DNA of 45,332 bases, filler included, from Jimgerdemannia flammicorona (taxonomy: Eukaryota), in the NCBI GenBank assembly GCA_003990765.1. It is 2 parts of 2 records of this genome, joined end to end, with 100 filler letters (N's around TTAATTAATTAA, not from the genome) between each part and the next. Parts side by side here need not be neighbours in the genome. Positions count along the whole stretch, not along the records: positions 1 to 22,619 come from RBNJ01001240.1; 1 more part is not named here. One strand, written 5' to 3'. Positions within the stretch are counted from its first letter, which is position 1; each line of letters begins with the position of its first letter. Shown here one piece after another: positions 2,447 to 40,349 of this stretch. The notes under the pieces were generated by a model. The model did no database searches. It saw only the letters and a program-made list of their open reading frames with translations, and was not told the origin of the DNA. Both the position numbers and the translations under genes were made by a program.

Positions 2447-2944
2447 TATGATGGTCAATCTGAATTAGTAACATGAATCAGGAGAATTAGACATTTGATC
2501 ACAGTATCTGAATCCAATTCTCAATATAGCTTAGCCTTATAAATAGCAGTCATATTTTACAAGTGTAGAAACTTTAATGTTCATAGAAACTTTGGCAACT
2601 ATAGAAATTCTACAGATGTAAATCCTTCACAATTGTAAAGATTCTGGCAGATGTAGAGAACTTATACTTGCTGACTTACAGAAAACATAGTCATAACTTA
2701 GCTACCTTATAGCTAGCAAAACTTGTATAAATAACCCAGTATCTTAGAGTAAATAAAACCTCAGATCGAAATAGTTCAAAAGCAAAGAGATAGCAAAGGA
2801 ACTAGTAAGCCTGCAGGCAGATACACTTTGAACTCACCCACCTGCCCCTGCAACTTCAAGAGACTCTGCAAGAGTCAGAACAGTCAAGTTTTCAAGATAC
2901 AGAAATCTGACATACTTTCAAGAGTAAGTGTCCACTATGTTACA
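2447..2944 (+). repeat. 5' LTR of element A
   Basis: Direct repeat of 8685-9182. Starts TA (decayed TG), ends TGTTACA; TATAAATA at 2726 and AATAAA at 2752. Confidence 0.95.
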
Positions 2945-2963: not shown

Positions 2964-3058
2964 ATGATTCAAGACGAATCCCTCACTTTCAAGCTAAACA
3001 ATGAACAATCACCCCTACCCAAACAACCATACAAACAGAGCCCCAATACCCAGACAAG

Positions 3059-6000
3059 ATGGATATGAGACTACCAGTATTTCATAGATATACCTCAGAT
3101 GAATCAATCATTACCTTCATTGATGATTTCGAGCAGTATGCTGCTGTAAGAACCCTGACAGCAGTACAGCAGGTAGCCCTTATGCCCTTTAGTCTATGAG
3201 GCCCTGCAAGAACAGCATTTATAGCTGCAAACTATGTGGAAAATGATGCCAATGCTACACTGATAGCACAGAAGACCTGGTTTCGAAACACCTACTACAC
3301 AGATGAGATCAAGCAAGCTCTGAAGGATCAGCTCAATACAATATACCAAGGAATGAGCGAAGATTCAAACACATTCTACACTAGAATCCGATATCAGATA
3401 ATCCTTGCGGATTATACCAATGCTATCCAAGACCAAGTAGCTGAAGCAACCTTCATGAAAGGAGTCTACCCAGAGATAGCCATGGCCATCCGCTCATCAC
3501 CAGTGATTCTGGATCTGCCACAAAAGGTCACCTATGCTCAGCAATACTGGATAGCCAGGCATCCACAAGACCATACAATGGAAAGGGTCACGGGAGTCAA
3601 AATCAAAGTACCCAAGACAACTAGTGTGATCCCTACCACAATGATCAATCAAAACACACCTCAGCTAAAAGCTACAGAGCAGCAAAAGAACAGTGACCCT
3701 ATAGAGGAACTCACCAAAAGGTTTGCTGAAATAACTACCCACCTGGGAGATGTGGTAAAGGAAATTCGAGAAAGAGACTGCCGCCCTGTTCAGAAGTTTG
3801 CCACCACCTCAGACAAGAAGAAAGATACCTGCTACAGCTGCGGAGAAGAAGGCCACTACTCATATGAATGTATGAGTAAAATTAAGTATAAGGCCCAACT
3901 AAGCAATGCTACTAGAAATAAGGAATAGGCCAACACAATCACCTTTGAAGAAATTGGAGAATCTGATGAAGAGGAATGGGAGGCCTATTCTGTGCAGACC
4001 ACCAAGAAGGATGTTTGCAAAGAGCTCTACAAGAGACCACCAGGAAGACCCAAGAAGAACCCAGTGGAAAAGCAGATGGAAACTGCCACAGAAAGCCAAG
4101 CCGAAGAGATGGACCAAGATATGAAGCTGGAGCAAGCAGTTCAAGATATCATCTGAGGAATCACTCCAGCCAGTGAAGGAGAAAAAGAAAAAAGGCTTCG
4201 CAAAACCAAGACCTTCAAGTATGATATCTTCAAGGACCTCAGTCAACAAAAGGTCAATGCAACCTTTGGTCAGCTCACAGAAATCCCAACATTCAGACAG
4301 CAAATGAGGTTTGGACTTGCCAAAATAAGTAAGAAACAAGGATGAAAGATAACTAAGACCAATAATGTTCAAGAGGACTCAAGAGAAGAAAGTGAGGACA
4401 ATCACAAAACCTCTGCTTATGCAACATGCCAAATTGAAGATAGAATCTTTGAAGCCATCATTGATACTAGAGCAGAAGGATGCCTCCTCAGCAAGAAGGC
4501 AGCAGACTGCCTAGGTTAGGATGTGGAAGAAGTAACTAAGCTGGTATTTATCATAGCTGATAGCACAAGAGCTACACCTCTGGGAAAAATCCGAGATGTT
4601 CCTATCAAGATTGGAGGAGCAACTATCTCAGTAGATATAATTATAACTAATGCCACCAACTATGACATCCTCATTGGCAATTAATGGCTTCACAAAGCCA
4701 AGGTAGTAATTGATCTCAATGCTCAGAAGATGCAGATCAACTACTGGGGACAGAAGATATGAATTCCCATCAATGTCAACAAAGGAGTCCTGCCCAACAT
4801 GGAGGAAGAAAAGAGCAAGCAAGAGGAAGCTTATATGGTGACTACTCCAAAGAAGCAGAAAGTTGGATGGATGAATGAAGAAGAATGGTACAAGAAGATT
4901 GCAGAAGGCTATGCACCATAAGGAGTCTGTCTCCATAGGATCAAGATGTATTGTATGAAGCACACTAATGATTGCTATTAGTACACCATCAGAATCAAGA
5001 ACCATGAGGAAAGAAGATAGAAAGCCCTTGAGAAACAGACCAGAGAAGAAGAGAAGGAGGAAGATGACGAACCACCAGCCCTCTTGGACTACCCTGATGC
5101 AGTCTTGCCAGAATACAAGTCAGAAAATGCAGCCAGAATGGACATCACTACAGTAGAAGAGACTGTACTGAAACCCCAGAGAACCACCCTACTCACAACT
5201 GGACTGGAGATAACCATCCCAAAGGATCATGTCAGGATTCTCAAGACAAGAAGCAGCCTGGCTAGAAGTGAAATTACAATCGAAGAAGGAGTCATCGATT
5301 CAGACTATACTGGAGAAATTCTACTCATTGCTAGGAATCACAATCCTACAATCCCATTTCCAGTCAAGAAGAAGGACTGATTAGTGCAAATGTTGATCTT
5401 TCCAATCCTACAACTAAAGATCATAGAAGTTAAGAAGCTGGAGGAAATGAAAAGAGGAAAGAAAGGATTTGGATCTACAGGAAGAGGAGTATTCACCAGC
5501 ACCAAGATCACTGAACTCGAGCATAAGAAGGAGGAAAACACAAGCAAGTATAGCTATACCATTGGAAATGAATTTCCACTCAAGAAAGAACTCAAGGAAA
5601 TACTCCACAAATTTGAAGATGTTCTTACCACAGATTTCAAGGATATCAAAGGAAAGACCCTACACTACTATCATGAAGTAGATACTGGAGATACTAAACC
5701 AATTTATCAGAAGGCAAGACCTGTTCTGCCAGTCTACTGAGAATAGCTCAGAGAAGAAATCAAGCAGATGGAAGAAGCCGGCATCATTAAAGAAGCCAGC
5801 AGCCCCTGGTCCTCACCTGTTGTACTAGCCCCGAAAAAGGGCAGCAAGCCTGGAGAATTCACCCCAAGACTCTGTGTTGACTACAGAAAGCTCAACATAG
5901 TTATCAAGAAGGATTGCCAACCACTGCCCCTCATCAATGACATCCTCATAACACTGGGAGACAAAGCACAGTACTACAGCACTTTGGACTTATACTCAGG

Positions 6001-7006
6001 ATTTCACCAAATTGGACTCACAGACATGGCAAGTGAAAAGTCAGCTTTCATCACCCTAGATGGAACCTACATCTACCTACAAATGTCATTTGGAATGTGC
6101 AATGCACCAGCAAGTTTCCAGCAAATGATGAACAAAATCTTCTGCTATGATATAGAAAGATAGATGATGGTCTATGTTGATGATGTAATCATCTACAGCC
6201 AGACACCAGAAGAACACCTGCAGTACATCCAGCAGATAATGGAAAGACTGAGAGAGCATGGCCTATACATCAAGCCTAAGAAATGCAAATTCGCAGAAAT
6301 TGAAATCTCCTATCTTGGTCATATCATCAACTGAGACAGAATACACACAGACCCCCTCAAGATATGTATAAGCAGTGGCAGCATACCCAAGACCCACTAC
6401 TGTTACAGAAGCCCAAGCCTTCATGGGACTTGCCTCTTATTATCACAGATTTATTAGAGGATTTTCTAATATTGTAGGACCAATCTATGAACTTAATAAG
6501 AAGGATACCAAGTTCCAGTGGACTGGCAGACAACAAAACACATTTGATGAACTCAAGGTTAGACTGACCCAGGCACCCATCCTCAGAAGACCTGACTGGA
6601 CTCAAGAATTCATCCTACAGACTGATGCAAGTGCACAAGGACTAGGAGTAGTCCTAGCTCAAAAGAAAGATAAAGTGAAGTATATCATCACATACCTCAG
6701 CTGCAGAACCCGAGGAGCTGAAAAAGAATATGAATCCTACAAGTTGAAATGCCTCACAGTCATCTGGGCTGTAGAAAGTTCCACTACTACTTAGCTGGAA
6801 GACACTTTACCATCCAAATGGATTACTCAGCTCTTACCTGGCTACTGACAACTGGACAACCTAAAGGAATCTATGCCAGATGGATAATGAAGTTGCAAGC
6901 TTATGATGTAACCATTGTATACCGCTCTGGAAGAACCAATGCCAATGCAGATATCCTCTCATAGACACTCCAAACTACCTCCAACCAACAAATCAATCAT
7001 GAATAA
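3059..7006 (+). pseudogene. Element A gag-protease-dUTPase-RT-RNase H polyprotein (stops, compensating frameshifts)
   Basis: Zinc knuckle CYSCGEEGHYSYEC; protease IDTRAEG (decayed DTG); RT SPWSSPVV, LCVDYRKLN, LDLYSGFHQI, YVDD; RNase H FILQTDAS, NANADILS. Gag through RT share one frame. Confidence 0.93.
5090..5490 (+). pseudogene. dUTPase domain of element A, between protease and RT
   Basis: Motifs AARMDI, TRSSLA, GVIDSDYTGEI, VQMLI and RGKKGFGSTG (trimeric dUTPase motifs 1-5). Confidence 0.92.
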
Positions 7007-8201
7007 GGAGCTCTACTACAGAATTATCACATACCTGAGACAGCGAAAAATGCCCCAACATCTGGAAGAATGGACACAAATGATTATCAACAGAACATAG
7101 AAACAATTCGAAACTGACAGAGAAACACTGAAGAAAGGAAAACTACTAGTTATACCAGAACACAAGAAGGAGCAAGCGATGAAATCAGTATATGAACTTG
7201 GCTATCTAGGAGGAACGAATACTTATGACAAGGCAAGAAGAATAATATGGTGGCCAGGAATGGAGGAAGATATCAGACAATTCATCAAGACCTGCGACAA
7301 ATGCCAGAAACAGAAACAAGACTAATGAAATCGAGCCCTAGGATCAGCACACATAGAACTAGTACCATTTGCCCACATTGCAATAGATGTAATTGGCCCT
7401 CTACCCTTGACTTTGACTGGCAACTGATACATTATTGTTATCATAGACCTTTTTACAAAATAGATAGAAGCAGGACCCCTTATGGAAGCCAATGCACAGT
7501 CAATCACTGATTTCTTCCACAAAGAAATCATCTGCTGATTCAAGACCCCAATGCAAGTAACCACAGATAGAGGAATGGAATTTATGAACCAGTTCTTCAA
7601 AGTTCTCTACAAGAAGTATAAGATCCAGCATATTCGGACCATAGCATATCACTCTCAAGGAAACGGACAAGTAGAAAGGACCAACAAGACTCTCAAAAAT
7701 ATTATTGCCAAGATCTGTGATAACTATGAGAACTGGGATCACTATCTGCTAATAGCATTATCCACTCTCCAGGATATCCGATCACAAAGTACCTACTTTA
7801 CCCCTCAAGAAATGCTGTTCAGAGAAGAATGTTCTCAGGGAACCCTATCATATAATGGAAATACTGTATGGAAACATGTAGACATGGAAATACGAAGACT
7901 ATACCAAATCAGGAAGAAGGCTGAGGATTACATAACCAAGGTACAGACACTACAACAGAGGAATGTGGAAAAGACCCACAAACCCCTGAAGATTATCAAG
8001 ATAGGAGACAAAGTTCTAGTGTATCAGAATATAGTAGAAGCTTCATGGTCATGAAAACTGGAGCCCAAGTGGGAAGGATCTTACCTGGTGCAAGATATAA
8101 AAGGGACCACCTTTTGGCTACAAAAACTCTCAGGCACAATCATCCCCACTACTATCTACTGAAACAGACTCAAGAAGTACTATGACCAGTCAACGAAGTA
8201 A
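6999..8201 (+). pseudogene. Integrase of element A
   Basis: WWPGM..IKTCDKC, IAIDVIGPL, TTDRGMEF, YHSQGNGQVERTN, KWEGSY (GPY/F-like). Starts at its own ATG in a different frame from RNase H. Confidence 0.9.
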
Positions 8202-8706
8202 TACAGCTGCCCTCAAGATCACCAGTGCCACCCAATGAGCCATAGAGAGACAATGGTGTTCTACCAAACTGCCAACAATGGAGGAATCCTTTGATAGTAT
8301 ACAAAGTATAGTCCAGACCCACCTATCATGAATTTTGCACTTCAAAGCCTACCAGACATGAACTGAGTTTCAGGAATACTTCAAGCTAGGACAACTACTG
8401 AATTCAAATCTGAAGATAGGGAAAGAAGACTGGATTAAAGAATGTCAGCTCACCTACATTCAGATCACAATTGCCAAGAGAGTGCACAAATTATTCAAAG
8501 ATGATGAGTCAACTCTAGCTCATCTATGAGAAGTAATCCCAGGAGATTTTGGACAGGTTAGGAGACAACATTGGAAGAATATAATAGCACAAATTGCACA
8601 GTACAAGGAGATACAAATCATAGAAGCCTGGGAGTTTGAGTGAATAGGATACTTCAGGGATGAATCACCTATTCAGGAGGAAGTTATAATGATCAATCTG
8701 AATTAG
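8182..8706 (+). pseudogene. ORF3 of element A, unknown function (~174 aa)
   Basis: One frame from ATG 8182 to TAG 8704-8706, interrupted only by TGA codons (plausibly CGA>TGA); similar to post-integrase ORFs of elements C and X. Confidence 0.75.
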
Positions 8707-9182
8707 TAACATGAATCAGGGGAATTAGACATTTGATCACAGTACCTAAATCCAATTCCCAATATAGCTTAGCCTTACAAATAGTAGTCATATTTTACAA
8801 GTGTAGAAACTTTAATATTCATAGAAACTTTGGCAACTGTAGAAATTCTACAGATGTAAATCCTTCACAATCATAAAGATTCTGGCAGATATAGAGAACT
8901 TACACTTACTGACTTACAGAAAACATAGTCATAACTTAGCTACCTTATAGCTAGCAAAACTTGTATAAATAACCCAGTATCTTAGAGTGAATAAAACCTC
9001 AGATCGAAATAGTTCAAAAGCAAAGAGATAGCAAAGGAACTAGTAAGCCTGCAGGTAGATACACTTCAAACTCACCCACCTGCCCCTACAACTTCAAGAG
9101 ACTCTGCAAGAGTCAGAACAGTCAAGTTTTCAAGATACAGAAATCCAATGTACTTTCAAGAGTAAGCATCCACTATGTTACA
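8685..9182 (+). repeat. 3' LTR of element A
   Basis: Repeat of 2447-2944; preceded by purine tract AGGAGGAAG (PPT); followed by TSD CTAC. Confidence 0.95.
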
Positions 9183-11069: not shown

Positions 11070-13085
11070 CTAAGATCTTATAGTCCTCAAACTTCTTATC
11101 TTTAAACTGTTCTGTTGTCTCTTGGATTTACTTGTATAGAATTGAGTAGAGGACTGAAATTTTTGTGCTTTTGAGTAGTTGGGTACTTGAATGCTTGAGT
11201 GTTTTAATACTGACTTTATTTTAAAGAAATAAGAGAAGTATTTATACAAAATATAATTCAATGGTTGCTAAGTTATAAAACTAAATATAAATCCTAATAA
11301 CTAAATAAATAAGATACTTAAATATAGAAAACTTCAGATTGTAAGTATAAATTTGAGTGTCTATATAAATAGTTGTATAAGATCAAAATACCAGAATAAT
11401 TTCAATAGTTATATAAAGAACTTAGAGCAGAATGTTCAGAATCCTAGAGACTTTATCTTCATCACTATTACTAAGACCAGAGGTTGGGATACATATCTTC
11501 AAAAGAGATAAAGTCAGCAAATGTTTTTATAAATATTTCATTTATTTCACATATTTCATATATTTCATATATATCAATTAGCAGAATAATATCATTGCTA
11601 ATGATGTCATTATATCCAGTAGTAGCAGAGAGAGCAAGGAGATTAAGGGCTCTCTAATCTATGATATTTTCCTCCACAAAGTAGAAAATAAAGGTGGGAT
11701 CTTGAGGGGATCTGATCTGGATACTGGGGCTTAGAATACTGAGATTAATTCTAGAGGATGAGATTCTAGAACTCTTCTACTTTATTACTTTTGAGAGTGA
11801 TGGTGGCTTCTATGGCTACTATGGCCTCTAGTACATCTGTGCAGTGACTGATAATTTCTTAAAGTTTGAGACTCTAATATACTCTAAGTTGGAGATTGAC
11901 TAAGGTATATACCTAAAGATCTAATGGATCTTTTTAGCTACTCTCAATTTATATATATCTATAGAGATGTTATCTTGTATCTCTTAGAGGCTGGTCTAAG
12001 AGAATTTCCAGCAAAGGAGATTTCTTATTTCATATTTCTGCTATATCTAGAGATATTCAGTAGCAGTAGTGATCCTTATCTCCATCTCACAGTAGTAGAG
12101 AGTAAAGTAGTAGGAGTCACCAGTATCTAGGTTGAGGCTTCTGGTATAGGTCTTTATAACTCTCTTAATATCTTAGAACATTCTTTCTTGGACTGAGAAA
12201 TCTTGGTGATTCCTAGATCTTACAGTTTAGTAAGTAGCTGATATTTTATTTATAGTGAGTCTTTCAAACTATTTTAGGATTTTATAAGTCTTATTTATAT
12301 TGCTGCTATAGTTTCTTAGTTCTTCTTTTATATTCCTTGAGATCTCTATCTTATAGTCATCATGACTCATAGTTGGTCATCATTACTCATCTTGTAGCCT
12401 GGATAAGTTATGCTGTATGATCTTCTTATATGATGATCTAGTAGCTTGTAAGAAAAGGCTCCTGTAATGATATCACTATTCTGAGATCACTATTATATCT
12501 TCCTTCTGAATAAGAATCTTTTCTTAAATGTTCTTATTCATTAGTCTAGTCTAAAAATTTTTCAGATCTCATAACCTCTGGCAAGGAGTCAAAAAGTGAT
12601 ATTTATAGACTGATATCTTCTTTATATATTTTGACATAATGGTAAAGAGTAGCTCCTTTTATATAAAGCAAGGGTCTGATTCTGATCTTAATCAATCAGT
12701 TGATAATTTGAACTTCTCTAACTTTAAAAGTCTTATGAATGAGTAGTTGCTAATATTATATTCCTTAGAGAATGATCCAGACAGATTGCCTGCTAGTTAT
12801 AAGATATACTATTATAATTTGCAGACTAGAACCTTATAGGCAGTCATCATATTTTACTTCTCTTATATATGTTTATAGTACTTCTTAAGTCTATTCCTAT
12901 GTACTGTAGTAGGCAGTATGATCTCTAAGAGTTTTCTAAGTTAGAAGATAGTTCTCTTGATATCTTATACATAGAAGAGTCTTTTCTATTTGAGCTCTAG
13001 TTTTCATAACCATAAGGCTTCTACTATATTTTGATATAGTAGAACCTTTTCTCTAATTTGAATAGGTTTTAGAGTCTTATAATTC
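11070..13085 (-). mobile_element. 3' part of a Gypsy element related to family A (element X): integrase C-terminus, accessory ORF region, PPT and probable LTR
   Basis: Reverse complement of 12860-13080 aligns with element A ~7980-8185 (KVLLYQNIVEALW..RLKKYY). PPT-like GGAGGAAAA at ~11667-11675; TATAAATA/AATAAA pair near 11215-11250. Which element owns that LTR, and its end, are uncertain. Confidence 0.7.
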
Positions 13086-13089
13086 TTTT

Positions 13090-15102
13090 CTAGAGAAGTA
13101 TGAAATATTATCATCTTCCTGAGATACATTCAATTCTCTATCCTGAAAGTTATTATCACTAAAGCTATCATCTATGATATAATTCTTAGTACTAGCTGGA
13201 AGAAAATGAATATAGTTGTTGATATTGATTAATAAGTACTCAAGTTTGACTACTAAGGTAAGAAGTACAGAGTTAAGATAACCAGCTATGAGCAATTAAA
13301 GAAGAAGAAGAAGGTTACTATCTAGGAAGAATATATCAGCAGTAAAGAGTCTACTATAGAAGAGGAAGAAGAATCCAAAGATGGAAATAATTTCAGACTC
13401 AATCTCCAAATCAATCTAATAGATGATAGGCCAGAAGACAACATATAGGTCAGAAATACTATCTCTATTACTATCAGAGCTATTGCAGAACAGATCAAAG
13501 GATGCCCCATCTATCTTAAGAGACACAAGTATCCTAAGTACTCCTCTAAGATCATTGAGACAAGGAATTCATCTGGTACAGTCTGCTCTGAGTGCAGAAG
13601 AAAGAAGAAGAAATACAGATATATTCCAGAAACACTTACAGCTGAAGCTATAGAAATACAAGCAATCTGGGATCAAAAATCATCTGAGAAAGAAGAAATC
13701 CCTAAACAGGAGATTTCTGAACAAGAAGTATCTAAAAAAGAAGAGGTCTCCAAACTCATTTCCTGTGATGATCCTTACTAGATATTACCTAAAGATAATG
13801 ACTCTTAGAATATTGAAGAAGGATTCAGTATAATTCTCATTATCCCAAAGTAAGAAATATATATATCAAGAAAGAGCCTTTTGGCTAAGAAGATATCTAC
13901 ATCAAATGGTCTTCTACTCTCTCCAAGACTACTGTTATTAGTTCCACCTACTAGATTAATAAGATATAGACTCTGAAGGCCAGAACTCTCAACTATAATT
14001 ATATAGTCAACTACTTTTCAAGAAGTTATTATAAGATTACAAAGTCAATTTAGAGGATAAGGTCTCTTTATCTAAACAGAAGTATATCCCTTGGCCACTC
14101 TTTCTCCAACCTATAACTAAGATAGATACTAATTTCTAAGATAACAGAAGATTAATAACTAAGAATAGTATTTTTGAGTAATGAGATATTGTAACTATAA
14201 AAGACACCCAGACTTCTGAAACTATAAATACCAGAAGATTCACCTCAGTCAGAATGTTACAATCCACACACTGAAGAGAGGAGATAACAGAACTCAGATT
14301 TGAAAAAGCCAGACCAAGAAGCCAGAAAGAAGGACTCTCAAAATCTATAATTTAGAAGAAGATATCCTAGCTCTCATCAGATATACAATCTGCTAAAAAT
14401 GGGTAGAAGATATCACCAATTTTATGGAAGCCCTAGACTCTATAGGAAAAAGAGAAATTAATTATCTCAAAGATCTCTCTACTAGAGCCAGATGGCTATA
14501 CCTTAATCTCAGAGCTTAGAGACTTTCTACCAGTAGAGCTTCAGTACAAGAATAGCTCAAACTCAGCAAAGATATTGCTCAGTATGTTCTGCTATATTCT
14601 AAGGCCAAACCCCTGACCAAAGCTTACTAAGATATAGGGTATGACCTCTACAGTCTAGAGGATGAATCTATCAAGTTTGAAAGAACATTAGTGTTCAGAA
14701 CTGGACTAGCCATGTAGCCACCCAAAGAAACCTACATCTAACTAACCTTAAGATCTGAACTTATCAGACAAGAAGTAACTATAGAAGGAGAAACTATAGA
14801 TCTAGAATATATAGATGAAATAAAGATCATTTTGTACAATAGTGATATAAAATAGTACTAAATTCTTAAAGGACAGAATATTGCTCAAGCAATCTTCATA
14901 AAAGTCAAGACCTCTCAATTATAAGAAGTCTTTAGACTGACTGAAGGATCAAAGCAAGCTGAAGGATTTGGAAGCTCAAATAAGAAGAAAGTATATCTCC
15001 TTCAGATCAACTACCTCAAGAAGAATACTTCTCAGTAAGTATATCACCAACTGGTCAAACTATACAAGAATCTCATTCTGGAGCCTAGAGAGCAAACCAC
15101 CT
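13090..15102 (+). mobile_element. Internal fragment of Gypsy family C (protease C-terminus, Cys/His spacer, dUTPase)
   Basis: Colinear with ~33680-35695 of the complete C element, more mutated; ends at a LINE 5' junction. Confidence 0.9.
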
Positions 15103-16167
15103 TACATCTTCCTGGCAGGGTGGGTGTCAATCCTGAATGTATACTGGTTCCCCAAGCTGTGGTACATGGCATATCACTTAGACTTTCTGGCCTGGGTGGT
15201 GAAAAGGCTGATGAAACTGACTAAAGATTGGATTTGGGCAGGAAGAAGGTCCCAGATCAGTTGGGATACCCTTGTGACACTAGTGATTAGGGGAGGCCTA
15301 GGTCTTGTGGACTTTCCTAAGTATCTATACTGCTTGCAAGCATGGTGGTTGAAAAGGGCAGTTGAATTATAGAGAGAAGGTTGGGTACTACTGATGCAGA
15401 AGGTGTAGGAGATGAGATTCTCTCCTCAAGGTTCTTCAGGAGACTTGCTCTCTCTGGTGGGTCTGAATGGAAGCTGGCAGATGTAGTATAAGGGCTTCTG
15501 GTGGGGAGTGGTGGATGGAGTACACTATATTGGCCTATACTGGTGTGGCAATGAGGGGGAGGTGGTGTGGGGTCCTGCTATGTAGCAGTGAGACTGACTG
15601 CTTCTAGGGAGGAGTCTGCTGACAGAGTTTGACATTGGTGATGGAGTGGAGTATCAGTGGAGTCTTGGCCAGAATCTTTGACTGAGTAGTTGGCAGGCAG
15701 TGAGGATTGGTGAGGAGTGGGACTGGGCAGAAATCTGGTCCTGGAGTACTGAGGTGTGGTAGTGGCTTTCTCCCAAGTTCTGGGTGGTTTGGTGATGAAT
15801 GCTGAGGAGGAATATTATGTTAAATTTCCATGCTAGGTATCTGGTGGAGGGGGGCCAACTGGATTGTGAGGAGTATTATAATGTCAGACAAGCAGGGGGA
15901 TTTGTGCAGATACCAGAACATTGGCTGCGGGAGTATGAGGTTTTGGGGGACTTTTAGATAGCTATAGGGGACCAGCTGGGTGTAGAAAGGAGGCTGGATA
16001 GAGAGAGAGGCCATTGGGAGGATTTAAGATCTCAACTAGTGAGAGGGGTTGGCAATGAGTAGCTTACTGTAGGATGGGTTGTAGCAGTGTAGGTAGGGCT
16101 AGCTGGTCATTGGTTTTTTGTTTTCAAGGAAGGGTAACAGATAGAGATACAGGAGAAGTTATTGAAG
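15103..16167 (+). mobile_element. 5'-truncated LINE fragment (ORF2 3' part)
   Basis: LAGWVSILNVYWFPKLWY..GGLGLVDF, colinear with ~20600-21660; 3' end cut where the next LINE begins. Confidence 0.85.
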
Positions 16168-16249
16168 CATCTTTCACCCATACTATTCAGGTGATACAAG
16201 ATCTCAGCAACACTTTTCTCAACATTTTTGGTAACAGACGACTATCAAT

Positions 16250-18190
16250 ATGGATGGCAATGATCAATCTGGCAGACATGCTGACCAGGGAGGTGATGGT
16301 GTCTTTGACTGGCAGCAGGTGGGGAGGAGGAGTGATGGTTTGGGGATGCCGGGGGCCTCGACAGCCACCTGAGACACTGGGGGCAGAGGGAGGGGCAGCT
16401 TGAGGCAGTAAGGAGGAGAGAGGTCGACCTTCACAGACAAGGTCAAGATGGGGAGGATGGCCTCAGGTCTGGATGGTTGGCTGGGTCTGAGATAGGCATC
16501 GATAACTACTGCTAGGGGACAGAGAGAAGTATCTGAGGGAGTATCTGATGGTAGGGGTGAAGGGGGAGTAGGGGCAGGAGATGTGACTGTTGATGAGACT
16601 GTGACTGAGGATCTGGCAAAAAATCCAGATATGATGGTAGCTACTAATTCAGGACAGGGGGTGGGTATGAGGTCTGGGGACCTGGCAGATGGGGTGATGG
16701 GCATGGTGTCAGCACCATTACTCAAGAAATCAAGGTTGGAATTCATGGTCACAATATGTTTCAGAGACTTGGCAGTAATGGCGAGGATGATTCTGAGGCT
16801 GGTGGCACAGGAGGCAAAAGGTGTGGCTTCAGTGAAGTTTTTGAAAGGGAAAGAAGGGATCAAGGTGGGGTTTGAGGAAGAGGAAGCACTGCTGGTAGCT
16901 ATAGAGAAGGGGGTGACAGTGAGTGGGATTGTGGTCCCTATGGCCAGGTGCATGTACTGGGACCCCAGAGTGGTGCAGTTGACAGTTTTGGATCTTCCAA
17001 TAGTGTCGAAGGAGAGAGCTAGAGAGTTGATTGTGCAGGTAGTCAAGGAATATGGGGAGATTGTGGATGTTGGGTTCAAGGTCTGGGAGGGTACCAAACT
17101 CCAGATGGGGGACATCGATATCAGGGTGTGATTGGCTGGAAAGGAGAACATGGGGAAGATGAGAGACTGGCCAGTGACACTGAGGTGGAGACCAGTGGAG
17201 TGCAGGATCATGAGGGTGAAGGAGACTCTGGAGGAGGAGGAGGACTTGCTTGAGGCACTGGAGGACCTGGAAGGGGCAGTCAAGAGAAGGTGATTGGCAT
17301 GGAAGAAGTATGTAACCAGGACAGTGGTAGAGGAAGTGGATGGAAAGAGGGTCAGGATGGATCAGATGACCTAGGAGAAGATGCAGGGGAGGAAAATTCA
17401 GAAGGAGCTGTTGGTGAAGCTGGGTTGGGGTAGAGTAGGTGGCAGCACAGAAGGTGGAAACACAGGATTGAGGGAGAGTGCCTGGGCTAGGGAAAGCAGG
17501 TTGGTCCAGGGTGGGGCTCAGAGTGGATTGAGAGAGGTGAGGGAGGGTAGTGGGGAGGCTGATGCTGAAATGAGCAAAGGAGTATACCCTCAGTATAGTG
17601 TCCCAGGAAGAGAGAGAGGGGAGGAGGAGTTGCTGGATGTCCCAGATGAGGAGTGGGATGAGTCAGTGAGGAGGAGTGCCCTGGTGGACCAAGGAGTGGA
17701 AGGGGGGCAGGTTGTCCAGGGTGTGGCAGAGGCAGTAGATGAGAAGAAGTGGCTGTGGAAGACTCTGGAAGGGGTGGTGGCTGAGGAGCTAGGAGGAGAG
17801 AACTTCTGGATTATAGAAGAGAGGCATTGAGAGGAGATCCTTCAGGGGGAGGAGGTGCCGAGGAAGGTGAGGAATGAGATCCTGGCAGTTCTATTGGAGT
17901 CAGTTGAATACCAGGTTGATGATCAGTGGGAGAAGGAGCTTAGGAGGATTGCAAATAACAGAGTGAAATTCTTGTGGAACTCAAGGAAGGGATTGAAGAA
18001 GTAGCACACAGTCTGCAGGGACTACCAGTCAGAGATGGAGGTGGTGGATGGGGTGGAATGTCAGGAGATCTTGGAGACATTGGATGCTCAGACTGTTGTG
18101 GAGGGTGACTTGGAGGCAGAGTGGTACTTGGATCTGGCTGGGGATGAGATGAGCATAGAGTACTAGGATGGGACTGCATTTGCAAATATT
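16250..18190 (+). pseudogene. LINE ORF1 remnant
   Basis: ATG 16250 in frame with the 16583 ORF; RRM-like segment VVQLTVLDLP..KEYGEIVDV typical of L1/Tx1 ORF1; several stops; 3' end approximate. Confidence 0.7.
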
Positions 18191-18197
18191 TTTCAAT

Positions 18198-21100: not shown

Positions 21101-21703
21101 CTGCTGGGTGGTATCTTGGCAGAGAACTTCCAGCTGGGTGAGGGTATGGAGTGTCTGCAGGGCTTGGATGGTGACCTTTGGCCTAAAGCCTGGTAGAGGG
21201 TCAGGATTGGTAAGGAGTGGGACTGGAATGGGCTTTGATGTTGGAGCAAGCAGGTGATGTGGTGGCTGCCCCCCAAGTTCTGAGTGATATGGTGGCAATT
21301 TCTCTGACAGAATGTGATGTTGAACTATCAGTCTGGATACTTGGTAGAGGGGGGCATTTTTGAGTATGAAAATTGTCTTGATGTTAGTCAGGAGAGAGGA
21401 GTGGTGCAAATGCCTGAACATTGACTTGGCGAGTGCAATATGTTGGGGGTATTCTGGAGTCATATCATGGACTGGTTAGGGCTGTGAGCTCTAGAGGGAG
21501 AGGTAGGGAGGAAGTGGGGAGAGCTCTGCCAAAGGCTGGTTGGTGGGGTTGGGGATGAATAGTTGACACTCGGCTGGGCTCTGGCTATATAAGTTAGGAT
21601 AGCTGGACATTGGTTACATGTATTTGAGGAGGGTAGGCAGGTTGGGGTTGGGGATAAGGTAGCATGATGGAAATGGTTGTTGCTGGACATTTTGAATGGC
21701 TAG
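18198..21703 (+). pseudogene. LINE ORF2 (APE endonuclease-RT-zinc finger) remnant
   Basis: SLNIN, GGDFN, SRIDW, SDH (APE); APGED, NWQPIMLLNMDHK, LDQEKVYDRV, QRDPLSP, FADD, YLGI (RT); Cys/His cluster near 21370-21440. Confidence 0.92.
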
Positions 21704-21908
21704 TGGTGGGGGTGGGGGCCAGAGAGGGGGAGTCACAGGGATTTGGTACAGGGTATTTCTCGGAAAAGTAACAGGAGGGTTTGGGTAGTGGGTGACTGGG
21801 TTGTCTTTGGGCAGGAGGGCATCAAGGGGGGTGGAATGGGTCCAAGGGGTATTGGTTGAAGGGTTGGGGTGATACTGTATTATTATTATTATAGACAGTA
21901 GTAATAAA

Positions 21909-29051: not shown

Positions 29052-29053
29052 TT

Positions 29054-30037: not shown

Positions 30038-31442
30038 TGTAACAAACCAAAATGTACCACCTGAATTATAACTTAGCCAGATGATGTGAACAATTAGCAT
30101 ACTTACTCAGCATAATGTGACTTCCAGTATATCATAGTTACCTATGTCTGCCACACTTATAATTAGCCAAGACACTAGATCAGGATTGTTTATCTGTATC
30201 CTGAGGACACACTCATGTCCTGCAGACACACTTATGTCCTGTGGACATACTCATGTCCTGCAGACACACTCATGTCCTGCGGATACATCTGTACCCAGAG
30301 AATACACCCAAACATTACCAGAAGTGGTAAATCTATAGTTAGCCATATAGCAACCAGATAGCAACCAACTTGTATAAATTACCCCAGAGATAAGAGTGAA
30401 TAAACCTCAGTCCAAATTGAAGTGCAACCCAAAGAAGCCTCTAAATATTGAGCAATTGGTCCCCTTATTCCCACTCCAGTCCACTTTCTAATACAAAGAT
30501 TGATTAGTACACTTGCCAGATAAGCCTGAAGAATTCGAGTTTTCCACCTAAGTTCAAGAAAGAACTTCACCACCTTTTGAAGAGAAATCTGCTGCTTAAG
30601 GAATAAGTTGCCATTTCCAAGTTATTTGCTGCCATTCTTGCTACAAGCCAGTCTTTCTGACACAACTTTGCAGTGGAGCCAGTCTATGATGTAATCTCAT
30701 GCAAACAAAGCCAGTCATTGATATAACTTACCAAGAATCCTAGTTAATTCCCAGTTGAAGCTGCCATTTTCAAGAAGTCCACTGATTTAGGAGAATCTAT
30801 ATTATTCGCCATTTTCAAGTTATCTGCATTCCCAGAAGAGCCTGATTTGGAATAACTCACACTATTTAAGTAGTATTCTCAGTTGAAGCTGAATCTGTGA
30901 CATCCAAGTTATTCATCATTCCCAGTGAGCCTGAGAAGAATCTGCTATCAGTATAATTCCCAGTGAGCCAAATCAAGTTATCTGCCAAATTATCAGAATG
31001 TTCTGCATAAGGAACCTGCCATACTACACAGAAATCGCCTGCCACCTGAGAAGGAGAACTGCTAAATTGTCAGACTATCATGCATAAGATCATCGCACTA
31101 CACAGAAATCGCCCACCACCCAAGAAGGAGAACTGCTAAATTGCCAGACCATCACATACAAGATTGTCATACTATATAAATTCTGCCATTCCCAGTTGAC
31201 CCAAGAAGAAAAACCATTCACACACACAAATTGCCACTACACTCAAAGAACTGTCTTAATTAGGAAATCAACATACAAATCACTCACAGATATCCAGCTT
31301 TGACTATTATACCACTAAACACCAAAGACCTCAGGAATCTTAGAACATTTTGTTACTTTTTGACAAAGTAACTGGGGGCTCAAGCCAAACTACATCAATC
31401 TCCAACCTTGTAATTTTCCTCTATTAAACTGGGCACATTAAA
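30038..31442 (+). repeat. 5' LTR of element C
   Basis: Starts TGTAAC; repeat of 38966-40349; TATAAAT at 30373, AATAAA at 30399; internal 19-bp and 74-bp tandem repeats. Confidence 0.93.
30202..30295 (+). repeat. 19-bp tandem repeat in the family C LTR
   Basis: Unit TG(C/T)(A/G)GACACACTCATGTCC; 4 full units plus a partial here, 3 plus a partial at 39130-39204, 4 plus a partial at ~43140-43234. Confidence 0.9.
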
Positions 31443-37355: not shown

Positions 37356-38431
37356 ACCAGAAGAAGGGTGTCCCAAGAAACTACATCCTAAAGGAAGCTC
37401 CTCAGACCATCAAGGTACAAGAAGATCTTATCCAAAAAGAACATCAGAAAGCCCACTAAGGACAAGCAAACATAGAAGAGAAGCTGCAAACAATACACCA
37501 ACATTGGCCCAATCTCAGAACACAAGTCTGAGACATTATTCAGAAATGTGACACCTACCAGAAGTACCAAGGAAAGAAGAACTATCAAGCCCCCCTGCAA
37601 CCAATTCCTCCACCCACTCACATCTTTCAAAGATGGGGAGTAGATATAATTGAACCTCTACCAGTTATACCAAGAAGAAATAAATACATCTTTGTATTTA
37701 TAGTACATCTGACCAAGTGGCCTGAGGCTTTCCCAATGGAAATTGTGGATGCCCTAACCAGTGTAGGCCTTCTCTATGAACTCACACTCAGATATGGATC
37801 CCCAGAAGAACTCATCTCTGACCAAGGTACAGAATTCATCAACAACATAATCACAAGTTATGCTCAAATTCACAAGATCTATCTCAAATGGACCACATCA
37901 TACCACCCCCAGACCAATGGCATGATAGAAAGGATGAACCAGACCATTAAGAAAGGACTTGCCTGAGTCAATGCTATCAATTGGGACCTCTGCTTACCTG
38001 AGATCCTATGGGAAATTCAGAACACCCCTGCTGCCTCCACCAAACAAAAGCCATTCGAAATAATATTTGCCAAGTAAACCAGAACTGCTGACCATGAGAA
38101 AATTGGAGACCTCCTCAAGAAGGCAGAACAGTTATGTAATCAAGCCAAAGGTCAGATTATCAAAGCCCAAGAAATACAAAAGAAGTATTATAATCAGAAA
38201 TGGAAAGATCAGAAGATCAAGATTGGAGATCAAGTACTAGTTTGGAGAAGCATGGTTGAAACAAACTTCACCACCAAATTGGAGCCCAAATGGGAAGGAC
38301 CTTATCTTGTATACAACATCAGAGGAACCAGTATCTATTTAAAAAGTATGGATGGATGAACCCTGAAGACACCAGTACACATAAATCACCTCAAGATATA
38401 TCTCTCCCCACACTATAAATCAGAGAATTGA
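37352..38431 (+). pseudogene. Integrase of element C
   Basis: H..AH..CDT(C) zinc-binding remnant, WGVDII, ISDQGTEF, YHPQTNGMIERMN, KWEGPY; its ATG overlaps the RNase H TGA. Confidence 0.9.
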
Positions 38432-38999
38432 CAACTGCCTCCAGACCCTTGTCCTCAGTTCCCTCCAAGCCCTACCAGTTCTCCTGCCTCAGTTCTGAGA
38501 ACCCAATGGAACATATCTTCAGAAAATCCAAGTTCATCAAGAGAACCTCACTCTGGCTGAGAGACTACTCCAGGTCCACCAGCTGTAGGCATACTATACA
38601 ATTGGAGAACAACTGCAGAATCTCCCCCTCCCAGACCTAGCTTATGTTTATAACACTACTGGCCTGAACAGAAGAAATACTACTGCTGCAGACAGACTAT
38701 ATACAATCTACAAATGAAATCCTTCTGCCTTAATCCAGGCCCAGTTCTCTCTAAATGACCTTCAGAGGATGACACTGCCTACCTATCTCAGTATCATTCA
38801 CCAAGTTGAGATCCTATTTCCTGAGGAAGAAGAGGAGCCCCTGGAATGGAGTGACTGTAGCTCAGATGATGATGATGGAATAGGTATAGATACAGAAGCT
38901 GCTTATGCCTATTGGGATGATGACTGAAGAATAGTCTGAGACAGACACCCTTCAGTGGGGGCTGATGTAACAAACCAAAATGTACCACCTGAATTATAA
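38415..38999 (+). pseudogene. ORF3 of element C, unknown function (~194 aa)
   Basis: One frame from ATA (probable decayed ATG) to TAA inside the LTR; only TGA/TAG interruptions; similar to ORF3 of A. Confidence 0.72.
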
Positions 39000-40349
39000 C
39001 TTAGCCAGATGATGTGAACAATTAGCATACTTACTCAGCATGATGTGACTTTCAGTATATCATAGTTACCCATGCCTGCCATACTTATAATTAGCCAAGA
39101 TACCAGATCAGGATTATTTATCTGTATCCTGAGGACACACTCAAATCCTGTGGACACACTCATGTCCTGTGGACACACTCATGTCCTGCAGATACACCTG
39201 TACCCAGAGGACACACCCAAACATTACCAGAAGTGGTAAATCTATAGTTAGCCACACAGCAACCAGATAGCAACCAACTTGTATAAATTACCCCAGAGAT
39301 AAGAGTGAATAAACCTCAGTTGGAATTGAAGTACAAACCAAAGAAGCCTCTAAAGATTGAGCAATTGGTCCCCTTATTCCCACTCTGGTCCACTTTCTGA
39401 TACAAAGATTGATTGGTATGCTTACTAGATAAGCCTGAAGAATTTGAGTTTGCCACCTAAGTTCAAGGAAGAACTTTACTACCTTTTGAAGAGAAACCCA
39501 CTGCTTAAGGAATAAGCTACTGTTTTCAAGTTATTTGCTACCATTCTTGCCACAAGCCAGTCTTTCTGATGTAACTTCACAGTGGAGCCAGTCTATGATG
39601 TAACTACACACAAATAAAGCCAGTCTTTGATGTAACTTACCAAGAATTCTAGTTAATTTCCAGTTGAAGCCACCATTTTCAAGAAGTCTGCTGATTCAGA
39701 AGAATCTATATCATTCACTGTTTTTAAGTTATCTGCATTTCCAGAAGAGCCCAATTTGGAATAACTCTTACCATTCGAGTAGTATTCCCAGTTGAAGCCG
39801 AATCGGCAACATCTGAGTTATTTGTCATTCCCAGTGAGTCTGAGAAGAATCTGCACCAGTATAATTTCCAGTGAGCCAAATTGAGTTATCTGCCAAATTA
39901 TCAGAATGTCCCACATAAGGAACCCACTGCACTATACAGAAATTGCCTGCCACCCAAGAAGGAGAACCACTAAATTGTCAGACCATCATATACAAGATCA
40001 TCACACTATACAGAAATCACCTGCCACCCAAGAAGGAGAACTGCTAAATTGCCAGATCATCATATACAAGATCATCACACTACACAAATTCTGCTATTCC
40101 CAGTTGACCCAAGAAGGAAACCTGTTTATATACACAAATTACTGCTATACCCAAGAACCGTCCCAATTAGGAAATCGATACACAAATTGCTTGCAGATAT
40201 CCAGCTTTAACTATTATACCACTAAACACCAAGGACCTCAGAAATCTTAGAACATTTTGTTGCTTTTTAACAAAGTAACTGAGGGCTCAAGCCAAACTAC
40301 ATCAACCCCCAACCTTGTAATTTGTCTCTATTGAGACAGGCACATTACA
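38966..40349 (+). repeat. 3' LTR of element C
   Basis: TGTAAC...TTACA; preceded by AGTGGGGGCTGA; followed by TSD GTAT. Confidence 0.93.

Follow-up and report, generated by a model that had tools for sequence, protein, structure and literature searches.

A probable accessory gene in the envelope position of Ty3/Gypsy retrotransposons of Jimgerdemannia flammicorona

What does a Ty3/Gypsy retrotransposon encode between its integrase and its 3' LTR, if this place is not taken by an envelope gene? LTR retrotransposons are usually considered to need gag and pol alone and, to our knowledge, third genes with a demonstrated role are few, namely env and CERV of Cer1. The question is raised by a stretch of 45,332 nucleotides (filler included) from the Jimgerdemannia flammicorona assembly GCA_003990765.1, which consists of two parts of two records joined end to end and is referred to as the window throughout. 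An initial annotation of the window had proposed a conserved third open reading frame, here termed ORF3, behind the integrase of an element A, with counterparts in an element C and a fragment X, and had regarded it as an accessory gene of this Gypsy lineage. Our analysis bears out this view: with a probability of roughly 0.9, ORF3 is a real, selected accessory gene of the lineage, as indicated by intact homologues, an omega (dN/dS) of 0.10, and the same place and frame in elements A and C. The features discussed below are collected in Table 1.

Element A is a Ty3/Gypsy LTR retrotransposon with the order gag-PR-dUTPase-RT-RNaseH-IN-ORF3 and without a chromodomain. It has two LTRs and a target-site duplication, and the order PR-RT-RNaseH-IN was obtained by Pfam on L001 and mapped onto A and C. 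L001 is a near-intact DNA relative, the sole locus resulting from 85 pattern matches in a single metagenome scan, and its layout corresponds to that of A, with IN followed by ORF3 and then by the polypurine tract (PPT) and LTR. Pfam reports a gag zinc knuckle, PR, dUTPase, RT, RNaseH, the IN zinc domain and the IN core on L001. Regarding the chromodomain, the integrase region of L001 gives just Integrase_H2C2 and rve, the IN tail in the window gives weak integrase-core matches and nothing further in Pfam, and in both window A and L001 the integrase terminates 5-14 codons past the HxNRLK motif. CpG observed/expected is 0.10 across the window. In a soil metagenome DNA run, 1578 contigs are at least 80% alike across element A, with low cover at 8297-8521. 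For a gene nearby, the closest clusters in the Atlas are fungal, a lead to a host that is probably a soil fungus.

Table 1. Positions of the retrotransposon features in the window, with remarks on their state.
Feature	Element	Position	Strand	Remarks
5' LTR	A	2447..2944	+	498 nt; 472/498 identical to 3' LTR
3' LTR	A	8685..9182	+	about 95% LTR-LTR identity
Target-site duplication	A	both flanks; one copy precedes 2447		CTAC, 4 nt
gag-PR-dUTPase-RT-RNaseH-IN	A	3050..8201	+	decayed, with several stops and frame changes (translation)
gag	A	3050-3925		tblastn, L001 query
PR	A	4400-4768		tblastn, L001 query
dUTPase	A	5099-5482		tblastn, L001 query
RT	A	5831-6328		tblastn, L001 query
RH	A	6519-6904		tblastn, L001 query
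Integrase stop	A	8199-8201	+	TAA
ORF3	A	8182..8643	+	ATG 8182; 153 codons and stop; decayed copy
In-frame TGAs of ORF3	A	8236, 8329, 8359, 8527		Arg in relatives; true stop TGA 8641-8643
Spacer with polypurine tract	A	8644..8684	+	non-coding; AGGAGGAAG immediately 5' of LTR
Integrase C-terminus	X (A-like element)	12869..13096	-	tblastn 55% over 76 aa, E 9e-14
Possible ORF3 remnant	X	11849..12034	-	2.6 bits, E 0.034; profile positions 64-125
5' LTR	C	30038..31440	+	86.8% identical over 1403 nt to 38966-40347
3' LTR	C	38966..40347	+	
ORF3	C	38415..38927	+	170 codons and stop; start decayed to ATA (M in relatives)
Stops in ORF3	C	TGA 38496, TAG 38586, TGA 38715		internal; true stop TGA 38925-38927

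From its ATG, the ORF3 frame of element A meets five stops, all of them TGA (codons 19, 50, 60, 116 and 154), and the first TAA or TAG is the TAG at 8704-8706; the remaining two frames over the same stretch contain 16 and 10 stops, respectively. The initial annotation had noted that the interrupted ORF is missed by the ORF track of the window and that it overlaps the integrase stop. Both observations are correct: the ORF list does not contain it, and the overlap amounts to 20 nt up to the end of the TAA, in the +1 frame. The proposal to read TGA as Arg can be followed for the four internal TGAs, where the consensus residue in the alignment of relatives is Arg at 4/4 positions, but not for the fifth. 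Of the 19 relatives, seven extend to the C-terminus and every one of these finishes with ...EAWEFE, and L001 has a TGA at the codon matching the fifth TGA of ORF3 A. Thus, the fifth TGA is the true stop, and ORF3 A ends at 8643, 41 nt 5' of the LTR, instead of extending across the PPT into the LTR as had been supposed. As L001 carries the codons AGA, CGG, CGA and AGA at the four internal TGA sites, a change from CGA to TGA in an ancestor of the window copy can only be inferred. The stretch from 8182 to 8643 derives from a genuine ORF3 by CpG decay and scores 233 bits against the A-type profile.

Relatives of the A-type ORF3 are readily found. Of the 12 candidates in the first search, nine are relatives (E 2e-58 to 2e-35), and their clusters comprise 19 related predicted proteins. 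Five are full-length with exactly 153 aa and share 71-80% identity. Every named record of the ORF3 relatives reads 'hypothetical protein'. With the alignment of the B type described below, 0/22 stretches in viral contigs and 0/66 in prokaryote genome contigs gave a relative.

Between window A and L001, ORF3 shows 32/14/68 differences at the three codon positions and an omega of 0.098, compared to 0.87 and 2.4 in the two shifted frames, and the excess of synonymous changes is significant (binomial p=4e-15). Removal of the codons with CpG-type transitions leaves omega at 0.104, far below 1. The comparison values are 0.153 for the integrase and 0.059 for RT/RNaseH; by this one DNA pair, ORF3 is under purifying selection as strong as that on pol.

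Is ORF3 restricted to the lineage of element A? Element C, which likewise contains a dUTPase (tblastn), carries its own ORF3, which lies in the +1 frame and shares 17 nt with the end of the integrase frame (stop TGA 38429-38431). A search over 113 candidates gave four relatives of ORF3 C (E 7e-71 to 9e-36); the two complete ones have 171 and 172 aa, share a common start, and end as the window frame does. The pol domains of A and C are just 27-46% identical (RT about 40%), and the pairwise signal between their ORF3s is weak, with a Smith-Waterman score of 38 equalled by 87/2000 shuffles. Profile-profile comparison of the two types, by which the ORF3s had been expected to resemble each other, does reveal similarity (P=4.8e-4). 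After addition of two distant relatives from an exhaustive search, P0026 (E 2e-6) and P0027 (E 3e-5), the match reaches P=1.6e-5 with a probability of 79%, and the homology depends on this single region of 57 columns; between P0026 and P0020, BLASTP yields an E-value of 0.2. The resulting family profile, alignment A7 of 29 natural proteins, matches C at 38412-38882 with 152.8 bits (profile positions 4-160) and A at 8200-8634 with 126.7 bits (profile positions 3-164). Two further sequences from the exhaustive search, P0025 and P0028, are spurious, being repetitive inside and matched over short parts, and were excluded from all alignments. A weak profile match at 25397-25266 on the minus strand lies within a Copia element and is due to chance.

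In A, L001 and C, ORF3 lies on the sense strand, its ATG is found 17-44 nt 5' of the integrase stop and always in the +1 frame, and its end precedes the PPT/3' LTR by approximately 40 nt. A and C agree in relative frame and in the way in which ORF3 overlaps the integrase stop. Judged by sequence comparison, ORF3 is common to these two deeply diverged element lineages and to at least two further subfamilies, B and D, which are known as predicted proteins only. Identity between the subfamilies is 13-30%.

A spaced residue pattern had been described behind the integrase of both C and X. For C this holds: in all six frames of the window, the pattern is found at two places only, behind the integrases of A and C and with identical spacing, and it spans those columns that are best conserved in the family (G70, R100). 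For X it does not, since the six-frame translation contains the second half alone, AKKIH*IF at 11938. Fragment X is 72% identical to A at the nucleotide level, and its candidate ORF3 remnant (Table 1) is marginal; the score of the profile match is equalled by 3/200 six-frame shuffles, and the remnant lies about 600 nt farther from the integrase end than expected.

Which protein would be made from this gene? AlphaFold2 (AF2) models of the A type (pLDDT 88.9, pTM 0.81, eight helices) and of the C type (pLDDT 81.4, helices in the same order, tail below pLDDT 50) were obtained; their likeness is not independent evidence, because the same mixed alignment stands behind both. The predicted product is a soluble, all-helical protein of 150-185 aa. 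This agrees with the small helical protein first suggested for this locus, as does the lack of a visible signal peptide or transmembrane stretch: no hydrophobic segment was detected in four relatives, one member per subfamily (top 19-residue Kyte-Doolittle mean 0.19-1.03).

A symmetric homodimer is also predicted, formed via the helix 2 / helix 3 hairpin, which is the best conserved segment; the modelled interface comprises residues 40-72 and 84-94. The homodimer model lends support to such binding, with a score of 0.47, compared to 0.00 for the best of three controls. Among solved structures, this mark is reached by 21/30 same-chain pairs and 0/23 single-chain proteins, and in eukaryotes by 17/29 same-chain pairs and 0/30 single chains. 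Three dimer runs share at least 50% of their contacts, with a partner pLDDT of 66-67, and the prediction was made without the family alignment of ORF3.

The folded body carries little net charge (-2 to +4), which is atypical for a DNA or RNA binder. The subfamilies differ in their C-termini. The last 39 residues have a net charge of -9 to -15 with 10-14 W/F/Y/L in the B type (n=7), -15 to -18 with 5-8 W/F/Y/L in the C type (n=5), 0 to -2 in the A type (n=5), and -3 to -4 in the D type (n=2). In two of the four subfamilies, B and C, the predicted protein ends in a strongly acidic tail (net charge -12 to -17) that is disordered and contains two Trp-centred motifs. Of this, just ...EAWEFE is retained in the A type, and the P0027 type has no tail.

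At the level of families and folds, ORF3 could not be assigned. For the two window ORF3s and five relatives, Pfam returned 0 families, and NCBIfam gave no match below E 0.02. The best hit of the ORF3 profile among PDB sequences has E 0.48. With the two models as queries, Foldseek reached at best E 1.2 and 0.55 in PDB, and E 0.94 in BFVD. VIA-align against 48,161 chains gave top Z values of 4.3 and 3.7, none of them at or above 5 and both inside the noise range of helical proteins. The C-terminal halves of both models align to the helix-turn-helix proteins SopB (3mkw_B; Z 3.1, rmsd 5.1, 85 aligned, and Z 2.8, 4.2, 80) and VirB (3vwb_A; Z 3.4, rmsd 4.8, 78 aligned, and Z 2.6, 4.5, 78), resemblances at noise level, with many unrelated rows at equal Z, and thus no more than a lead. 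They are the sole hints towards the nucleic-acid-binding regulator or anti-silencing factor that the initial annotation had suggested as possible roles, which are still guesses. Look-alikes of P0001 in the ESM Atlas are unnamed prokaryotic or viral clusters at 0.95 with 166-173 shared features and are uninformative.

An envelope is rejected as the identity of ORF3, given the lack of a hydrophobic segment, the soluble all-helical models, and the absence of any match to an env or fusion-glycoprotein family in Pfam (the two window ORF3s and five relatives) or in the fold searches of BFVD and PDB. An origin from Gag or capsid was rejected as well (hhalign of A7 against the L001 Gag: P=0.7, probability 0.07%). 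No description of ORF3 was found in the literature searched, Repbase and GyDB lying outside this search. The initial annotation had recognised no characterised family, and this impression persists after the searches of Pfam, NCBIfam, PDB sequences and folds; nor was a described retroelement domain matched, which would have taken away the novelty. Apparently, ORF3 is an undescribed family among the additional ORFs of LTR retrotransposons.

For the function of ORF3, we propose an element-encoded regulatory adaptor. The folded dimer would hold a component of the element, which may be LTR DNA, genomic RNA or Gag/IN; recruitment of a host factor would fall to the acidic-aromatic tail. Expression would most likely proceed from a subgenomic mRNA, either spliced or with an internal start. 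Within this proposal, the single likeliest version, which we put forward tentatively, is that ORF3 activates transcription from the LTR of its own element; the logic would be that of foamy-virus Tas or herpesvirus VP16, with a structured binding core and an acidic activation tail. Since A-type proteins, such as the one encoded at 8182-8643, have only a short acidic tail and those of the P0027 type have none, a mechanism based on the tail would not be universal.

Several other readings have to be weighed against this proposal. The dimer might instead bind integrase or Gag while the acidic Trp tail contacts a host chromatin, nuclear-import or motor protein, such that ORF3 would serve the pre-integration complex as an adaptor for targeting or trafficking and substitute for the integrase chromodomain. 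Most fungal Gypsy elements carry a chromodomain on their integrase, and its absence here (L001 Pfam, window IN tail) fits this idea, as does the fact that ORF3 abuts and overlaps the integrase in both lineages. The disordered acidic tails with their two Trp motifs resemble short linear binding motifs: W-acidic motifs bind kinesin light chain, to which the ORF3 tails bear a loose likeness, and acidic-aromatic stretches bind histones. The tails are unlike the Atg8-interacting motif, the Hsp70/90 EEVD-type C-terminus and AP-2 FxDxF. The near or complete loss of the tail in the A and P0027 types speaks against the idea, however, and kinesin-1 of fungi reportedly has no light chains; we consider it unlikely, although worth keeping in view. 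Somewhat less credible is a factor that binds unspliced genomic RNA and promotes its nuclear export, translation or packaging in the manner of Rev or CERV. ORF3 is small, helical and predicted to be dimeric, like many RNA-export adaptors, and the env-position protein of Cer1, which is not an envelope, is a precedent, being required for genomic RNA export (PMC10309623). A basic or Arg-rich patch is absent from the body of ORF3, though, the Pfam and NCBIfam searches gave no family of RNA-binding proteins, and aid in export is needed mainly for intron-retaining genomic RNA.

A counter-defence against host silencing (DNA methylation, heterochromatin or RNAi), in which the acidic tail sequesters a basic host protein, for example, is improbable. 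Repeats are strongly mutated or methylated by the host, as the CpG depletion indicates, so such a function would pay, and divergence between lineages is rapid with conservation within them, as in host-interaction genes; but rapid evolution fits any lineage-specific accessory protein equally well, and known suppressors show no similarity. We give still less credit to the reading that ORF3 is a C-terminal extension of the integrase, produced by programmed +1 ribosomal frameshifting in the 17-44 nt overlap. The +1 frame in A, L001 and C would suit it, as would the openness of the ORF3 frame for some codons 5' of the ATG and the N-terminally extended gene calls P0029, P0033 and P0040; a +1 frameshift from gag to pol is known in Ty1 and Ty3. 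Against it, Met occupies the same aligned start in 4/4 subfamilies, the L001 ATG stands in a strong initiation context (ACCATGG), the L001 frame has a stop just 14 codons upstream, and a frameshift site was not identified. Finally, the frame might be open by chance, or only through cis-acting constraints on RNA or DNA, with no protein made. ORF3 is known here from its sequence alone, it is short, and its region also houses cis elements such as the PPT. However, the third-position excess, the low omega, the five 153-aa copies and the confident fold prediction all speak for a protein, and the truly cis-acting spacer behaves differently, being identical to L001 at 39/41 nt, compared to only 75% for ORF3. 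This reading is close to refuted.

Returning to the proposed regulatory adaptor, a broader picture can be sketched, which we regard as speculative and rather doubtful in its full extent: a clade of 'complex' fungal LTR retrotransposons may possess its own dimeric regulator with an unseen fold and a Trp tail that recruits host machinery, kept since the split of A and C. In this case, a retrovirus-style accessory gene would have arisen outside retroviruses, with host co-activators, chromatin or trafficking factors switching on or steering the element. ORF3 deserves attention for being as constrained as integrase, shared by lineages whose RTs are about 40% identical, and without a family match, and for a predicted, confident fold that resembles no solved structure. 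If ORF3 acts as a regulator or adaptor, it would offer a way to understand how chromodomain-less Gypsy elements persist in a host with heavy methylation or mutation of repeats, and would point to more retrovirus-like accessory functions outside retroviruses. The profile also enables annotators to recognise the gene, such that its copies are no longer called host 'orphan' genes.

How does ORF3 relate to known systems? Foamy-virus Tas/Bel1 and HIV Rev and Tat are small regulatory proteins encoded 3' of pol, and in Tas and VP16 a structured part for binding is joined to an acidic tail for activation. By composition, the B and C subfamilies of ORF3 may have a Tas/VP16-like architecture, whereas the A type is almost tailless; no similarity of ORF3 to Tas, Rev, Tat or VP16 was found in PDB sequences or folds. 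The env-like ORF3s of errantiviruses (Drosophila gypsy), Athila and their relatives occupy the same slot, from integrase to PPT on the same strand. In contrast to these, the ORF3 studied here has about one third of the size, no signal peptide or transmembrane segment and no Pfam env family, and is predicted to be a soluble helical dimer.

CERV, the env-position protein of the C. elegans Ty3/Gypsy element Cer1, is regulatory in the life cycle of the element and is stated to have no obvious homology outside nematodes (PMC10309623). Compared by description only, CERV and ORF3 both take the env position without homologues beyond their host group. They differ in that CERV has 517 aa and derives from a five-exon spliced mRNA with exons common with gag (PMC10309623), while ORF3 has 150-185 aa and its own ATG overlapping the integrase stop; the role of CERV in RNA export is demonstrated, that of ORF3 inferred. 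In Boty/BcGypsy1 of Botrytis cinerea, the additional gene brtn (PMC7264820; bioRxiv 10.1101/2021.04.13.439636) is described as antisense to gag-pol (PMC7264820), unlike ORF3, which by the same comparison of descriptions is sense and overlaps the integrase stop. The fungal Gypsy survey of Novikova et al. 2010 draws an 'add. ORF' of unknown function, which the text gives without sequence, position or description and which may be identical with the ORF3 family; it also reports a dUTPase between PR and RT in PosPlaTy3-5 of Postia placenta (PMC2864245). Along this line, the LTR retrotransposons of bdelloid rotifers resemble the elements studied here in having family-specific third ORFs together with a dUTPase (PMC5408684). 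Their non-envelope ORF3s are of GDSL esterase, DEDDy exonuclease, coiled-coil and TM types, and those with an assignable function are enzymes of known fold, whereas the ORF3 of A and C matches no enzyme family or known fold. These cases show that accessory genes in general can come to lie in the env slot (PMC5408684).

ORF3, the small third gene 3' of integrase, occupies the env slot without being an envelope; it is under selection and looks like a gene of its own. In element A, a Ty3/Gypsy insertion with a 4-nt duplication (CTAC) on both flanks, a frame extends from ATG 8182 over 175 codons to TAG 8704-8706, with five internal stops that are all TGA, none of them TAA or TAG; the remaining two frames of this stretch hold 16 and 10 stops. 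The initial annotation had described this frame as it is seen in the sequence, and it is indeed absent from the mechanical ORF list. In alignments with relatives, the first four TGAs fall on consensus arginines, which bears out the reading of TGA as R; L001, a near-intact relative of element A recovered as DNA, has AGA, CGG, CGA and AGA at these positions. The fifth TGA, however, is the stop position of all complete relatives, and the frame of L001 likewise closes with TGA at this codon. We therefore place the actual ORF3 of element A, as judged from these alignments, at 8182-8643, and the proposed run through the polypurine tract (PPT) into the LTR is given up. The last 63 nt of the longer frame are a spacer with the PPT plus the first LTR bases. 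The ORF3-to-LTR spacer (8644-8684; 6257-6297 in L001) is identical at 39 of 41 positions between the two elements, compared to 75% identity in ORF3 and approximately 74% in the elements otherwise, which argues that these 41 nt around the PPT act as a strongly conserved cis element rather than as coding sequence.

A word-seeded protein search with the element A ORF3, stops read as X, yielded nine proteins among 12 candidates (E 2e-58 to 2e-35, 66-75% identity). Their clusters hold 19 sequences; exactly 153 aa are found in five, the shared C-terminus ...EAWEFE is reached by seven of those sequences, and wherever a family member carries a source name, it is 'hypothetical protein'. L001 is a 6479-nt contig, 73.7% identical to A across 6.1 kb, with the order gag, protease (PR), dUTPase, reverse transcriptase (RT), RNaseH, integrase (IN), ORF3, PPT, LTR. 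Its positions 1-300 comprise the 3' end of a further ORF3 copy (...KTIQTIEAWEFE*), a spacer and an LTR, followed by the full element, and represent either two tandem elements sharing an LTR or an assembly loop.

Between A and L001, ORF3 shows 114 differences, distributed 32/14/68 over codon positions 1/2/3. The Nei-Gojobori omega is 0.098 (pS 0.66, pN 0.14; binomial p=4e-15 for the synonymous excess), while this DNA gives 0.87 and 2.4 when read in the shifted frames. CpG-type transitions make up 8 of the 114 differences, and when the six codons holding them are dropped, omega for this one pair is 0.104, still far under 1. As the same pair gives 0.153 for integrase and 0.059 for RT/RNaseH, ORF3 is constrained as strongly as pol in this single DNA comparison. 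A second line of evidence for constraint is given by five independent 153-aa copies with 71-80% identity. Intact homologues and selection together support the accessory gene of this Gypsy lineage that had been proposed.

Element C, the other Ty3/Gypsy element considered here, has pol domains 27-46% identical to the A family and carries extra sequence between PR and dUTPase, as seen from a distance of ~1.36 kb versus ~0.33 kb in A. Located 3' of its integrase stop (TGA 38429-38431), in the +1 frame, is a reading frame of 170 codons, interrupted by three stops. A search with it revealed four proteins among 113 candidates (E 7e-71 to 9e-36); two of these are complete, at 171 and 172 aa. The start MNQR/MTQR is shared by all four and falls on ATA in the window, and both complete proteins terminate with ...WDDD at the place of TGA in the window. 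Given this common start and matching end, element C also has a real ORF3, at 38415-38927.

Compared pairwise, the A and C ORF3s show only a weak signal, with a Smith-Waterman score of 38 that 87 of 2000 shuffles equal; profile against profile, P=4.8e-4 (probability 32%). When the A-type profile was run with HMMER exhaustively against 1.84 billion representatives, seven proteins reached E 0.001 or better: three of A type, two repetitive ones set aside as spurious, and two new ones that agree in size, namely P0026 (165 aa, E 2e-6) and P0027 (154 aa, E 3e-5), which match each other at E 2e-8. With these two included, the A profile matches the C profile at P=1.6e-5 (probability 79%, 57 collinear columns); P0026 against one C-type protein gave no match (E 0.2). 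The case is strengthened by the location, which is the same in both elements, as are the frame relative to integrase and the way its stop is overlapped (by 20 nt in A, 17 nt in C and 44 nt in L001), and we consider the two ORF3s probably homologous. A search seeded with all types found 25 proteins among 1293 candidates, and a joint alignment of 29 proteins resolves four subfamilies: A type (153 aa), B type around P0026 (164-169 aa), C type (164-183 aa) and D type around P0027 (154-168 aa). P31, G70, R100 and A111 are almost invariant, and the two motifs initially spotted by eye contain G70 and R100.

With the joint profile, element C reaches 152.8 bits and element A 126.7 bits. The sole other match of this profile in the window (12034-11849, minus strand) lies downstream of the integrase of X, a fragment of an A-like element whose integrase C-terminus (13096-12869, minus strand) is 55% identical. 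This match (2.6 bits, E 0.034, profile positions 64-125) includes the AKKIH*IF noted in the initial annotation; its score is reached by 3 of 200 six-frame block-shuffles, and reversed sequences reach -5.4. Compared to A and C, the putative remnant is ~600 nt more distant from the end of integrase; this offset (11849-12869) could stem from an insertion or from a longer N-terminus, or the match could be due to chance. Hence, of the three elements originally credited with the ORF, A and C are certain and X is marginal.

Decayed retroelements crowd the window, and CpG is nearly lost from it, with an observed/expected ratio of 0.10 over the whole stretch. The LTRs of element A differ from each other by transitions. 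In a soil metagenome run, 1578 contigs resemble element A at 80% or more, and among the kinds of change counted on soil-metagenome contigs aligned to A, 554 transitions stand against 80 transversions. Owing to the CpG depletion and the transition-rich differences, methylation-driven decay fits better than classic CpA-targeted RIP. The GC content of old fragments drops to 20-30%. Unlike the remaining window, 15000-22600 (~7.6 kb) shows 47-53% GC and a strong strand asymmetry, with a GC skew of +0.33 to +0.58; its plus frames carry stop-ridden remnants that resemble a LINE-type reverse transcriptase in its tail part. A TMA46/ZC3H15-like ORF, with fungal clusters closest in the ESM Atlas, is surrounded by dead transposons and may be a retrocopy or a genuine single-exon gene; the TMA46/ZC3H15-like protein is a partner of DRG GTPases. 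This ORF and the soil contigs make a soil fungus a reasonable candidate for the host.

Coordinates of elements and neighbouring features in the window
Feature	Position	Strand	Remarks
Element A, complete Ty3/Gypsy insertion, LTRs	2447-2944, 8685-9182		LTRs 472/498 identical
Element A, end of integrase frame	8199-8201		TAA
dUTPase between PR and RT, element A	5099-5482	+
dUTPase between PR and RT, element C	35231-35572	+
dUTPase between PR and RT, C-like fragment	14637-14978	+
Element C, LTRs	30038-31440, 38966-40347		86.8% identical
TMA46/ZC3H15-like CCCH zinc-finger ORF	22721-23557	-	intact, intron-less, at least 279 aa, cut by N run
Ty1/Copia-type element	~24100-29200	-	zinc knuckle, integrase and RT motifs in translation
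142-nt direct repeats bounding the Ty1/Copia-type element	24098 and 29056		93% identical
Further Gypsy protease fragment	41324-41689	-
Third C-like 5' LTR and gag	42976-45332	+	running off window end

None of the ORF3 proteins examined has a hydrophobic segment, consistent with the lack of a transmembrane stretch reported initially. AlphaFold2 predicts eight helices for the A type on the joint alignment (pLDDT 88.9, pTM 0.81), and for the C type the same helix succession followed by a tail at pLDDT <50 (overall 81.4). The two models share their input alignment and are thus not independent; both agree with the small helical protein envisaged earlier. The folded body is near neutral, and the last 35 residues have a net charge of -9 to -14 in B and -15 to -17 in C, compared to -1 to -3 and -2 to -4 for the A and D types, respectively. 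Two Trp-centred motifs occur in the B and C tails (e.g., ...LWLD...DEWDV, ...LEWSD...YWDDD), and the A type retains ...EAWEFE. Homodimer prediction, run without the alignment as input, scored 0.47 (best of three controls 0.00). Among proteins solved as one-chain pairs, 21 of 30 attain this value, compared to 0 of 23 among those solved as single chains (17/29 versus 0/30 on eukaryotes). The runs share at least half of the contacts, with a partner pLDDT of 66-67, and the predicted symmetric interface, formed by the helix 2/helix 3 hairpin (residues 40-72) and residues 84-94, is the best-conserved part of the A-type alignment. This supports a homodimer. The ORF3 product is predicted to be soluble, helical and dimeric, and two subfamilies out of four would add a disordered tail of acidic-aromatic composition.

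Given a structured dimeric core and an acidic tail with Trp, Phe and Leu, the core may hold one partner while the tail would recruit another. Our first choice, at a probability of about 0.3, is that ORF3 activates transcription of its own element, following an activator logic like that of Tas and VP16. Any tail-centred model has to face the A type, found in element A itself, which is nearly tailless, and the D type, which has no tail. An adaptor for targeting or trafficking that replaces the missing chromodomain is a rather unlikely alternative. A Rev- or CERV-like RNA factor appears more doubtful again, and the body is not basic, which speaks against nucleic-acid binding. We regard a counter-silencing factor as improbable, and an extension of integrase by +1 frameshifting as slightly more so: the conserved Met and the ACCATGG context in L001 favour independent initiation, as far as sequence context indicates.

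In agreement with the earlier impression that no characterised family is recognisable, ORF3 matched no Pfam family, nothing of weight in NCBIfam, and PDB sequences at best with E 0.48. Foldseek against PDB and BFVD gave E 0.55-1.2 at best, and VIA-align against 48,161 chains gave best Z scores of 4.3 (rmsd 5.8, 75 aligned) and 3.7 (rmsd 4.3, 78 aligned), typically far exceeded by chance for helical models according to its notes. The element's own Gag gave no match either (P=0.7). For the C-terminal half, both models repeatedly bring up ParB-type DNA-binding domains (SopB, VirB), at Z 2.6-3.4 and alongside unrelated entries, which we treat as no more than a lead. No description of the ORF3 protein was found in the literature searched, which includes the main text of Novikova et al. 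2010 (PMC2864245). Fungal Gypsy elements are drawn there with an 'add. ORF' of unknown function, and for an element from Postia a dUTPase is reported to lie between PR and RT; the 'add. ORF' may overlap the ORF3 family. Additional ORFs in LTR retrotransposons are already known. They include env-like and antisense ORFs (PMC7264820), enzymatic ORF3s in rotifer elements (PMC5408684) and CERV of Cer1 (PMC10309623). According to the first of these, brtn of Boty is antisense, whereas ORF3 overlaps the integrase stop and runs in the sense of the element. What may be new is an unnamed, apparently fold-novel family of accessory genes in dUTPase-bearing, chromodomain-less Gypsy elements.
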